Source of the DNA: a virus
Taxonomy: Duplodnaviria > Heunggongvirae > Uroviricota > Caudoviricetes
DNA: 42,406 bases
Direction: 5' to 3' (one strand)
IMG/VR virus record: IMGVR_UViG_2534682160_000015
Location: 1-42,406 of that record
Position numbers: made by a program. The number at the start of each line of letters is the position of its first letter. The first letter of the stretch is position 1. This document shows positions 24,001 to 27,000 of the stretch, in pieces.

Positions 24001-27000
24001 CGCATTCAATGACACGATCACTCATCCCGGAAGCCCGGGGATCGTAATCTGCAGCTGGTTAGCCAGGGAGTTAATCTCAGCGACCAACACTGGCTTCGTA
24101 TAGCGCCATGCTGCCAGCCCTTGTCCGCAGAAGCTCGCCATGTCTTTCTTCTGGTCAAACTCATGACATTTCATGTTGAGCTGCGCACTTAAGCTGTTGC
24201 GATGCTGAAGTTCTCCGGTGAAGTAGTCATCGAGGACTTTATAGGCCGCGTACTTGAACCCGGGGTTTAACCAAGCCGCATAATCGTAAGCAACAAACTT
24301 CCCGCCATATGTTCCACCGTGTACACCGCGCTCAGTAAAAACCACAGATTCGTGGTTTTTCTCCAGCTCGGCTAAGAACTCTTTGGTCTGCTTGTTTCGC
24401 AGGTAGTGGTAAGGCGATTCAGATTCACTTTTACCACTGGCTTTCCACATATCAGTGAGGCAGATCATGCCATCTTCACCGATACGAATTGGTTGATTGA
24501 AGAGGGTTAATGATTTCATAGCGTGTACCTACTCTTTGAAATGAACCTTTGCCGCACAGGAAACCAGCCCACCGAGGCTCGCCAGCACTAACTGGTATCC
24601 TCAAAGGCCCATTCCAAAGGGGCAGGTTCGGTGTAAAAACATGCGTTGCGGTACGCATTTATTGCAAAAAGCCCCGCATCGCGAGGCTCATTAAATGGAC
24701 TTTGTGATTTGCAAAAAATTATTTCAGGCATTGCGTCCTGATGTATTCCTGCAGGTAGTTAACCTGCGCGGTTATCTTGTCGATTCCACTTCGGAGACGG
24801 TAATAATTGAGTTCAGCATCTGCTGTAAGTCCTGGGCTTTCTCCATCGCCCATGCCGCTGGCTCCGGTCGTTGACTTTGCACAGGTGGCGGCGACTTGCA
24901 GGCGCTTACGACCAGCAGAAACATCAGCACGGAGGCTTTCGATAGTCGCGTTAGCATCAGCAAGCTCCTTTGTGTATCTGGCGTCGAGTTCTGCTACATC
25001 ACGTTGACGCTTCTGCATGTCAGCAATTGTGGATGCGGCCTTATCGCGCTGCTCTTTGTAGGCGATGGCGTTATCACGGTAGTGATTAACAGCCCATGAC
25101 AGGCAAACGATGATGCAGATAACCAGAGCGGAGATAATCGCGGTTACTCTGCTCATACCTCAATCTCTCTGACCGTTCCGCCAGCTTCTTTGAATTTTGC
25201 AATCAGACTGTCAGCCTTATGCTCGAACTGACCATAACCAGCGCCCGGCAGTGAAGCCCATATATTGCTGCAACGGTCGATAGCCTGACGGATATCACCG
25301 CGATCAATCATCGGCAAAGCGCCACGCTCCTTAATCTGCTGCAATGCAACAGCGTCCTGGCTTTTCGGAGAGAAGTCTTTCAGGCCAAGCTGCTTACGAT
25401 AGGCATCCCACCAACGGGAAAGAAGCTGGTAACGTCCGGCTGCTGTTGATTTGAGTTTTTGGTTTAGCGTGACAAGTTTGCGAGGGTGATCGGAGTAATC
25501 AGTGAATAACTCTCCGCCAACAATGACGTCATAACCATGATTTCTGGTTTTCTGTCGTCCGTTATCAGTTCCCTCTGACCACGCCAGCATATCGAGGAAC
25601 GCCTTACGTTGATTATTGATTTCCACCATCTTCTACTCCGGCTTTTTTAGCAGCGAAGCGTTTGATAAGCGAACCAATCGAGTCAGTACCGATGTAGCCG
25701 ATGAACACGCTCGTTATATAAGCGAGATTGCTACTTAGTCCGGCGAAGTCGAGAAGGTCACGAATGAACCAGGCGATAATGGCGCACATCGTTGCGTCGA
25801 TTACTGTTTTTGTAAACGCACCGCCATTATATCTGCCGCGAAGGTACGCCATTGCAAACGCAAGGATTGCCCCGATGCCTTGTTCCTTTGCCGCGAGAAT
25901 GGCGGCTAACAGGTCATGTTTTTCTGGCATCTTCATGTCTTACCCCCAATAAGGGGATTTGCTCTATTTAATTAGGAATAAGGTCGATTACTGATAGAAC
26001 AAATCCAGGCTACTGTGTTTAGTAATCAGATTTGTTCGTGACCGATATGCACGGGCAAAACGGCATGAGGTTGTTAGCGCAACCTCCTGCCACCCGCTTT
26101 CACGAAGGTCATGTGTAGAAGGCCGCAGCATAACTATCACTGATGAATTCAGGATAGCCAGTGGCTACGGCTCAGTTATGGTGCTGGTTAACGGACTTGA
26201 ACCGCTACCAATTCGCTTACAAGGCGACTGCTCTACCATTGGAGCTAAACCAGCATATTTGGCGGGACAGCGTGGACTCGAACCACGATAAGAAGGTTAA
26301 CAGCCTTCCGTAATGACCTTTATACGACTGACCCAAATAAAAAAGCCACCGTTGCAACTTAAGAGTCACTAACGGCAGCTTACCCTCTAATTATGGCTAA
26401 ATGGCTAATTGCATGTCAAGGCTTTTAACAGCAACATGCTTAACTTTCTCAACACGTTTACGCATTTTAAAAGCATTTTGCATTGGTTGGTACAAAACAA
26501 ATAATGACGCTTTCAGGATATCGTCAATTTCGTTTCTACAGGTTGCCAGTGAAGGTTTTCTCCATCCCTCGCCACCGCGTCCACACATCTTGCGTGGCTT
26601 TGCAGTCGCGTGATAGTAGGATGCAATTGCTCTCTTAGATGAACCATGAGCGTAGTAGCTGAGGAGGATGCCAAAGGCTTTCTTGTCAATGTACATGACG
26701 GAATCGACGACCTGAGAAATCAACATTCCATCATCATCATTGCACATTGGCCTTGTCATAACTCTTCCCGGCTCTACGCTCTCCATGAACTTCGCTATTA
26801 CGCTGCTCATGCGCTTTTCAAGACGACCTGAATAAACCCATGCGCCCCACAGTTCAAGCCAGCCATTCAGCCACTCGTGCTGTTCTTTGGTGAGGTTTAG
26901 CTCTCTTATGCTCATCGTCTTCCCTTTTTGCCTGGCGTGACCATCAGGACGCCGTTAACTATTACGTGACGCTCGCCTTTGCTGTCTCGGTTGTACTTGA

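Follow-up and report, generated by a model that had tools for sequence, protein, structure and literature searches.

A tRNA-Asn/tRNA-Thr pair between the Q gene and the lysis genes of a P22-like Escherichia coli phage: late-operon context and possible role as replacement tRNAs

Introduction

The presence of one or two particular tRNA genes in small temperate phages calls for an explanation. The virus record IMGVR_UViG_2534682160_000015 (Caudoviricetes), whose 42,406 bases were analyzed in full (hereafter, the window), represents a mosaic P22-like (CUS-3/Kapi1-like) phage or prophage of E. coli. Exactly two tRNA genes, tRNA-Thr(tgt) and tRNA-Asn(gtt), were called in the window by ARAGORN, both on the minus strand, and they are located downstream of the gene for the late-gene antiterminator Q. 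We favor, with a confidence slightly better than even, the interpretation that these genes are the late-expressed replacement tRNA pair of a phage-21-type late-control module, which is composed of Q, the late promoter pR', the qut site with its Q-binding elements (QBE), the terminator tR', tRNA-Asn, and tRNA-Thr. The nuclease-resistance part of this interpretation has been shown for tRNA-Thr through the phage 21 allele, and the sequence of tRNA-Asn suggests that it may apply to the second gene as well. Neither the genes, which are already annotated in other phages, nor the protection against the P2 Old nuclease by the phage 21 tRNA-Thr, which was published in 2025, is a discovery of this study. 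The expression of the cassette, the role of tRNA-Asn, and the effect of the pair on lambdoid or P22-like infection of hosts carrying P2/P4 elements bear on the question posed above.

Structure and Identity of the tRNA Genes

The pair is formed by the following elements, given in the direction of transcription:

26260-26334, minus strand: tRNA-Asn, anticodon GUU, discriminator G73, encoded CCA (ARAGORN; Rfam, 55.3 bits)
26255-26259, minus strand: 5-nt spacer AAUAU between tRNA-Asn and tRNA-Thr (direct sequence reading)
26179-26254, minus strand: tRNA-Thr, anticodon UGU, G1-C72, C2-G71, A73, encoded CCA (ARAGORN; Rfam, 60.0 bits)

The Rfam family RF00005, for which the gathering score is 29, independently matches both tRNA-Thr (E = 1.2e-10) and tRNA-Asn (E = 2.2e-9), the E values referring to the whole window, both strands, and all families. 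The identities Asn-GUU and Thr-UGU proposed in the initial annotation, which had been made from the sequence alone, were thus called by both programs, and its coordinates, encoded CCA ends, and 5-nt spacing proved to be exact. The late-transcript strand corresponds to the minus strand of the window. Both anticodon loops are 7 nt long and contain U33 (CUUGUAA in tRNA-Thr and CUGUUAA in tRNA-Asn), and the two T-loops (UUCAAGU and UUCGAGU) are of the GTTCRA type. The anticodon arm of tRNA-Thr reads GUCGC-CUUGUAA-GCGAA, with positions 27:43 unpaired (G.A).

Comparison with the homologous genes of a Klebsiella phage revealed compensatory changes at pairs 6-67, 7-66, and 28-42 of tRNA-Asn and at pairs 3-70 and 6-67 of tRNA-Thr, and none of the changes in the helices is disruptive. 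Across sets of six sequences, double changes were observed for 9 of the 21 pairs in tRNA-Thr and for 14 of the 22 pairs in tRNA-Asn. Since the changes in paired positions are compensatory and non-disruptive, the cloverleaves are under selection and do not represent chance matches. In E. coli, the identity elements recognized by the asparaginyl-tRNA synthetase are the anticodon GUU and G73, whereas the threonyl-tRNA synthetase recognizes G1-C72, C2-G71, G35, and U36. All of these elements are present in the window pair, and, as judged from their sequences, both genes probably encode functional tRNAs.

The window tRNA-Thr is 64% identical to the host gene thrU, and the window tRNA-Asn is 59% identical to asnT; therefore, neither gene is a copy of its host counterpart. 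The same values bear on an origin of the pair as an integration-site relic, i.e., as tRNA fragments resembling a phage attachment site (attP) or as recombination targets. Many lambdoid and P22-like phages do integrate in tRNA genes, such as thrW in the case of P22 and SfI; however, neither gene considered here is a fragment, both having their full length, an intact cloverleaf, and a CCA end, they lie within the late operon 25 kb from the integrase gene (1-1158), and at 59-64% identity to asnT and thrU no host gene could be rebuilt from them. We therefore rejected this explanation as effectively refuted by gene length, distance from the integrase, and low host identity, and we assign it a vanishingly small probability.

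Several peculiarities of the two genes deserve mention. The acceptor stem of tRNA-Asn contains a U4.U69 mismatch, and in the D-loop of tRNA-Thr (CAAUGGUA) position 14, which is usually A, is occupied by C; both deviations are also present in the respective Klebsiella homologs. The D-arm of tRNA-Asn (26309-26326, minus strand; UCGUAUAAAGGUCAUUAC) is identical in 15 of 18 positions to that of the E. coli glyT product, tRNA-Gly(UCC) (UCGUAUAAUGGCUAUUAC), and the two D-arms have the same U13.U22 mismatch. This likeness hints that the tRNA-Asn gene may come from a different tRNA scaffold.

Position of the Pair in the Late Transcript

Upstream of the tRNA pair, the following elements were identified:

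26397-26915, minus strand: late-gene antiterminator Q, phage-21 type, 172 aa (Pfam PF06530 Phage_antitermQ, E = 1.1e-25)
26390-26419, minus strand: late promoter pR', formed by TTGACA, 18 nt, and CATAAT (promoter scan, 11/12; alignment to phage 21, Sf6, and phage L)
26335-26381, minus strand: intrinsic terminator tR', formed by a hairpin (26381-26343) followed by UUUUUUAUUU (26342-26335)

The order of elements on the minus strand is Q gene, promoter, terminator, tRNA-Asn, tRNA-Thr, leader, and S, which agrees with the placement of the tRNA pair between Q and S in the initial annotation. By homology to the annotated start in phage 21, transcription from pR' would begin at approximately position 26383. 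The tR' hairpin has a folding energy of -20.2 kcal/mol (z = -4.26), with none of 200 shuffled sequences being equally stable; the terminator is identical to the annotated tR' of phage 21 and Sf6, and the last U of its U-run directly adjoins G1 of tRNA-Asn. A scan of positions 25500-27200 for a second strong promoter on the minus strand found pR' alone. An independent promoter of the tRNA genes was rejected, as pR' is the only strong minus-strand site and the U-run leaves no space 5' of tRNA-Asn. Because pR' is the only good promoter and tR' abuts tRNA-Asn, the dependence of the tRNA pair on the Q-controlled late transcript is plausible.

The space between the promoter hexamers, which in phage 21 is the site of the Q-binding elements, contains two direct repeats of QBE-like sequence, AATTAGCC and ATTTAGCC (26410-26395). 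In sequence, they differ from the phage 21 elements ATTGAGCA and AATGAGCA and are of the Sf6/L type instead. Over 162 aa, the window Q has 85% identity to that of phage 21; the two proteins diverge past approximately residue 94, and the C-terminal part of the window Q is likewise of the Sf6/L type. The transcribed leader and terminator, on the other hand, are identical to those of phage 21 from approximately +3 onward. Given the divergence of Q past residue 94, the different repeats, and the identical leader, the Q/QBE specificity seems to have been switched while the leader, the terminator, and the tRNAs were kept.

Module Boundaries

Downstream of the tRNA pair, the window contains a lambda-type region with the following features:

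25937-26177, minus strand: lambda-type late leader preceding S, 241 nt, corresponding to lambda 44945-45185 (BLASTN and local alignment)
24719-25936, minus strand: lambda-type lysis cassette S, R, Rz as a whole (Pfam Phage_holin_3_1 and Phage_lysis; homology to lambda S, R, and Rz and to Sf6 genes 60-63)
25613-25936, minus strand: S107/S105 holin
25153-25629, minus strand: R
24719-25156, minus strand: Rz

The presence of a lambda-like leader ahead of S, noted in the initial annotation, is borne out by the alignment of lambda 44945-46235 with window 26177-24908 (92.7% over 1,292 nt, through S, R, and Rz). This homology begins inside the CCA end of tRNA-Thr. The opposite flank of the pair is covered by phage 21, which aligns without a break with window 26922-26117 (88%), i.e., through Q, the promoter, tR', both tRNAs, and 60 nt further. 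Sf6 aligns across both parts (26914-24951; 97% over 1,964 nt), including the lambda-type S/R/Rz genes. 

The lambda sequence just 5' of the junction (...CAGCACAACCCAAACTGAG) resembles the 3' end of the tRNA; nonetheless, a decayed tRNA remnant in lambda was rejected, since an Rfam search of lambda 44499-45199 at E values up to 10 returned no tRNA and the alignment is at the level of shuffled sequences. Specifically, the local alignment of the tRNA pair with lambda 44700-44944 has a score of 18, compared with 16 +/- 2.2 for shuffles, 70 of 300 of which were as good. The description of the tRNAs as inserted into a lambda-type background was therefore not upheld, as the phage 21 homology is continuous from Q through the tRNAs and lambda contains no tRNA remnant. 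According to these alignments, the tRNA pair is the tail of a phage-21-type Q/pR'/tR' module that replaces lambda Q, pR', 6S, tR', and orf-64 as a block.

Distribution in Phages and E. coli Genomes

Matches to a 251-nt segment with the pair were obtained from 90 phage records, of which 71 have an identity of at least 95%, and many of the records are annotated with tRNA-Asn and tRNA-Thr. They include phage 21, Sf6, SfI, BTP1, SPN9CC, HF4s, and several Salmonella P22-like phages. In addition, the pair is annotated by PGAP in 369 of 5,426 complete E. coli genomes in RefSeq. In the Sf6 record (AF547987), similarity to phage 21 is stated in the annotation of the promoter, the qut site, tR', and the two tRNAs, and the phage 21 record likewise annotates the promoter, QBE, tR', and both tRNAs. 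One or both tRNAs 3' of Q were described for Sf6, ST64T, PS3, and p21 in the SfI paper, and they are also discussed in the phage L paper. Thus, the feature is already known, and Asn/Thr is the classic set for a Q21-type Q rather than the different set that it had been taken for, given the phage 21 pair, the phage records, and the E. coli genomes listed above.

The closest known counterparts of the locus are the late regulatory region of phage 21 and the cassettes annotated in Sf6, SfI, BTP1, SPN9CC, and others. In phage 21, tRNA-Asn is 100% identical, tRNA-Thr differs in one nucleotide (position 45), and the pair as a whole is 98.7% identical. The phage 21 and window loci also have in common the tRNA order, the 5-nt spacing, the leader, the abutment of tR' and tRNA-Asn, and a Q of the Q21 family. 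They differ in the repeats and the C-terminal part of Q described above, as well as in the downstream genes, since phage 21 has its own cassette with a pinholin and a signal-arrest-release (SAR) endolysin, whereas the window and Sf6 have lambda-type S/R/Rz genes.

The comparison with Shiga toxin (Stx) phages made in the initial annotation is right at the level of the class, the Stx-phage set being the counterpart that goes with another type of Q. In Stx phage 933W, with the order Q-pR'-tR'-ileZ-argN-argO, the tRNA genes likewise occupy the site 3' of Q, pR', qut, and tR' and 5' of the lysis genes in the lambdoid late operon. The tRNAs of 933W, however, are one Ile and two Arg species that are located approximately 370 nt past tR', with a separate putative promoter and with stx2AB downstream of them, whereas in the window the anticodons are GUU and UGU and tRNA-Asn touches the terminator.

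Conservation of the pair in phages of Escherichia, Shigella, and Salmonella amounts to 98-100%, whereas the neighboring Q is 85-88% identical. This contrast bears on the possibility that the tRNAs merely hitch-hike with the Q/pR'/tR' module, or else act as RNase P/RNase E processing signals that set the 5' end of the late mRNA. The constant association of the cassette with the same leader and terminator would fit such an explanation, and so would the absence of tRNAs at this site in P22 and lambda and the state of the second tRNA in phage L and ST64T, both of which are viable isolates. Passive carriage, however, would not account for a conservation higher than that of the adjacent Q, for the intact anticodons and synthetase identity elements, for the compensatory changes that keep the helices, or for the ability of the phage 21 tRNA-Thr to work in a decoding-dependent rescue (PMC12445682). 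We consider hitch-hiking or a purely processing role improbable.

The tRNA-Asn of phage L is 100% identical to the window tRNA-Asn. The second tRNA of phage L (MW013502, 1347-1418) and ST64T is annotated as tRNA-Leu(UAA) and was considered as a possible alternative cargo. Its Rfam score is only 42 bits, its anticodon loop is shortened and abnormal, and ARAGORN does not call it. From its sequence, this gene seems to be a tRNA-Thr derivative that has been rearranged or has decayed.

Proposed Mode of Action

Under the favored interpretation of a late-expressed replacement pair, pR' would fire constitutively, and its transcripts would end at tR', approximately 49 nt downstream. Once Q accumulates, RNA polymerase would read past tR' and move straight on to the tRNA pair, which would form the 5' end of the late mRNA. 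Cleavage at the two G1 residues would be carried out by host RNase P, and the 3' ends would be trimmed to the encoded CCA by host enzymes; these steps belong to the standard E. coli tRNA maturation and are extended here to the cassette by inference. The mature tRNAs would be charged by the host asparaginyl- and threonyl-tRNA synthetases and would serve as replacements. AAY and especially ACA codons would thereby stay readable during the bulk synthesis of virion and lysis proteins, even if a defense nuclease had destroyed the single-copy host tRNA-Thr(UGU) or tRNA-Asn(GUU). The nucleases in question would be the Toprim tRNases of P2/P4 elements, namely P2 Old and PARIS AriB. In addition, the pair would top up the decoding of ACA, a codon that the phage uses often and the host seldom.

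Possible Resistance of the Pair to Toprim Nucleases

The P2 Old protein is the effector of the classic P2-lambda interference and kills mainly via the host tRNA-Thr(UGU), from which it cuts out the anticodon arm; tRNA-Asn(GUU), tRNA-Lys(UUU), and tRNA-Val(UAC) are also cleaved, although more slowly (PMC12445682). Lambda, which is restricted by P2 Old (PMC12445682), has no tRNAs. In a screen of 245 coliphage tRNAs, rescue was provided by Thr(UGU) tRNAs only, and the phage 21 tRNA-Thr (tRNA-Thr21), tested separately, protected cells and resisted in vitro cleavage at physiological K+ (PMC12445682). For resistance to Old, the anticodon stem must be shortened and, in addition, the CNG motif must be altered; tRNA-Thr21 has the shorter stem together with the motif change C28U/G42A (PMC12445682; Govande et al., 2025).

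The window tRNA-Thr has the G.A opposition at 27:43, UCG at positions 28-30, and CGA at positions 40-42, compared with CUG and CAG in the host. Thus, it is equal to tRNA-Thr21 in its UGU anticodon, in its entire anticodon arm, and in both published resistance features, and differs from it in having U45 in place of G45, the published resistance belonging to the G45 allele. The rescue by tRNA-Thr21 was obtained with plasmid expression, whereas the window tRNA-Thr stands in a late-transcript context. By analogy with this single-nucleotide variant, we infer that the window tRNA-Thr is probably a nuclease-resistant replacement. The window tRNA-Asn has no Old CNG motif on either strand of the anticodon stem (AAG/CUU, compared with CGG/CCG in the host).

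The second candidate nuclease is PARIS AriB, a system of P4-like satellites by which lambda is restricted as well. It targets Lys(UUU), Thr(UGU), and Asn(GUU) tRNAs and cuts the sequence U36AAUC/A41 at the position of the slash, and changes at U39, A41, and U16 impair cleavage (PMC12409363). Positions 36-41 of the window tRNAs read UAAGCG in tRNA-Thr and UAACCU in tRNA-Asn, and neither tRNA has U16. All three AriB determinants are therefore substituted in both tRNAs (G39, G41, and A16 in tRNA-Thr; C39, U41, and A16 in tRNA-Asn). The G39 of the window tRNA-Thr also occurs in T5, P1, and N4, and it was found in all six phage Thr(UGU) genes examined, whereas host thrU has U39.

Escape of T5 from PARIS needs its own Lys, Thr, and Asn variants, with tRNA-Lys being required for the bypass (PMC12409363). 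The T5 tRNA-Lys/Thr/Asn set (PMC11464382; PMC12409363) resembles the window pair in the Thr-UGU and Asn-GUU identities, in the substitutions at positions 39 and 41, and in the absence of U16. In contrast to T5, the window does not encode tRNA-Lys(UUU), the primary AriB target, and its tRNAs are only distantly related in sequence to the T5 genes.

A number of observations weigh against a replacement role of the pair. With regard to Old, the rescue by tRNA-Thr21 was partial (small colonies) and driven by a plasmid promoter (PMC12445682), and the window allele differs from the tested one at position 45. The 27:43 pair of tRNA-Asn stays paired, so that only one of the two Old-resistance factors is present in this tRNA, and its Klebsiella homolog retains CNG motifs (CAG/CUG). 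Old is known to be triggered by proteins such as lambda Gam or Abc2, neither of which was recognized by Pfam in ten open reading frames (ORFs) of the early-left region, for which Pfam gives N, RecT, Gp157-like, and others. With regard to AriB, tRNA-Lys(UUU), its main target, was absent from the ARAGORN calls for the whole window, and, since tRNA-Lys is required for bypass, the pair alone should not defeat the B185 PARIS; moreover, the tRNA-Asn of P1 retains an ideal, host-like AriB site (UAAUCA). With regard to expression, a late-made pair would not protect the translation of early genes.

Codon Usage

The main competing explanation is that the pair serves codon supply only, raising the tRNA pool for codons used more by the phage than by the host (ACA, and the Asn codons of Asn-rich virion proteins) and speeding up late translation with no anti-nuclease role. 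Codon usage was compared between 46 ORFs of the window (9,490 codons) and 42 annotated genes of E. coli K-12 (14,790 codons). ACA occurs at 14.5 per 1000 codons in the phage and at 5.4 in the K-12 sample, which amounts to a 2.7-fold enrichment; its share among Thr codons is 27 and 10%, respectively (Fisher p = 3e-15). This enrichment, as expected under codon supply, is consistent with the values of 17.3 vs. 7.1 reported in the SfI paper, and the host tRNA-Thr(UGU) is produced from a single gene. ACA, however, is only the seventh most enriched codon, and no tRNAs are carried for the six codons ahead of it (AGG, AGA, AUA, CGA, UCA, and GGA).

A bias of ACA toward late genes was rejected, as late and early genes do not differ in its use (odds ratio 0.88, p = 0.59), and the gene of the most abundant protein, the coat, avoids this codon (2 of 35 Thr codons). 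A comparison of the anticodons with the codon usage of the late genes and the host had been suggested in the initial annotation. Asn codons are more frequent in the phage late genes than in the K-12 sample (50.6 vs. 37.6 per 1000), the tailspike gene contains 59 of them, AAC accounts for 19 of the 22 Asn codons of the coat gene, and the use of Asn codons in such late proteins is also noted in the phage L paper; on the other hand, E. coli has four tRNA-Asn genes, and no Asn bias was found by the authors of the SfI paper. Finally, codon supply leaves unexplained why exactly the two Old-resistance changes are present in the anticodon arm of tRNA-Thr. We regard codon supply as rather unlikely to be the sole function of the pair; as a contribution it is plausible for Thr, but it leaves the choice of these two tRNAs unexplained.

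Asn-Thr Pairs in Other Phages

The pairing is also present in coliphages that are not related to this one. Asn(GUU) followed by Thr(UGU) at a distance of 2 nt was found in P1 (2425-2578 of the P1 sequence examined) and in Cyrano (973-1125), and N4 has the order Asn-Ser-Thr (1337-1586 of the sequence examined). The Thr genes of these three phages are 78-82% identical to the window tRNA-Thr, whereas their Asn genes are only 56-61% identical to the window tRNA-Asn and belong to another lineage. Their tRNA clusters also stand in other genomic contexts, outside of a Q-controlled leader. The low identity of the Asn genes suggests that the Asn-Thr pairing was assembled more than once.

A more specific version of the nuclease-resistance interpretation may be considered, in which the Asn-Thr tandem is a two-part cassette directed against Toprim nucleases, with neither tRNA being a mere passenger. 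Such a cassette would blunt P2 Old together with PARIS-like AriB variants, the two P2/P4-borne systems by which lambdoid phages are excluded, and would be delivered as a burst behind tR' at the time of late protein synthesis. A common selective pressure would have led P1, N4-like, and T5-like phages to acquire the Asn-Thr combination independently. Leakage through tR' from the constitutive pR' might then pre-load lysogens with the two tRNAs. We offer this version tentatively, as a possibility that is less probable than not.

An expanded variant of the locus was observed in the Klebsiella lambdoid phage ST16-OXA48phi5.2 (1501-1820), with the order Q, tRNA-Asn, tRNA-Phe, tRNA-Thr, tRNA-Arg(UCU), and holin. 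The identity to the window genes is 91-93% for the tRNA-Asn and tRNA-Thr of this phage. Judging by this expanded cassette, the late-leader site appears to accumulate tRNAs.

Other Features of the Window

Two features outside of the late operon were noted. The right end of the window is reached by a 415-aa ORF (41159-42406, minus strand), whose counterparts in related phage records are annotated as a sucrose transport protein or permease; the ORF belongs either to phage cargo or to host DNA flanking the phage. At 6052-6119 on the plus strand, the sar antisense RNA is present in full length (Rfam RF00262, 97.4 bits, E = 6.9e-20), by which a P22-type immI region (ant/arc/mnt) is marked in the E. 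coli phage.

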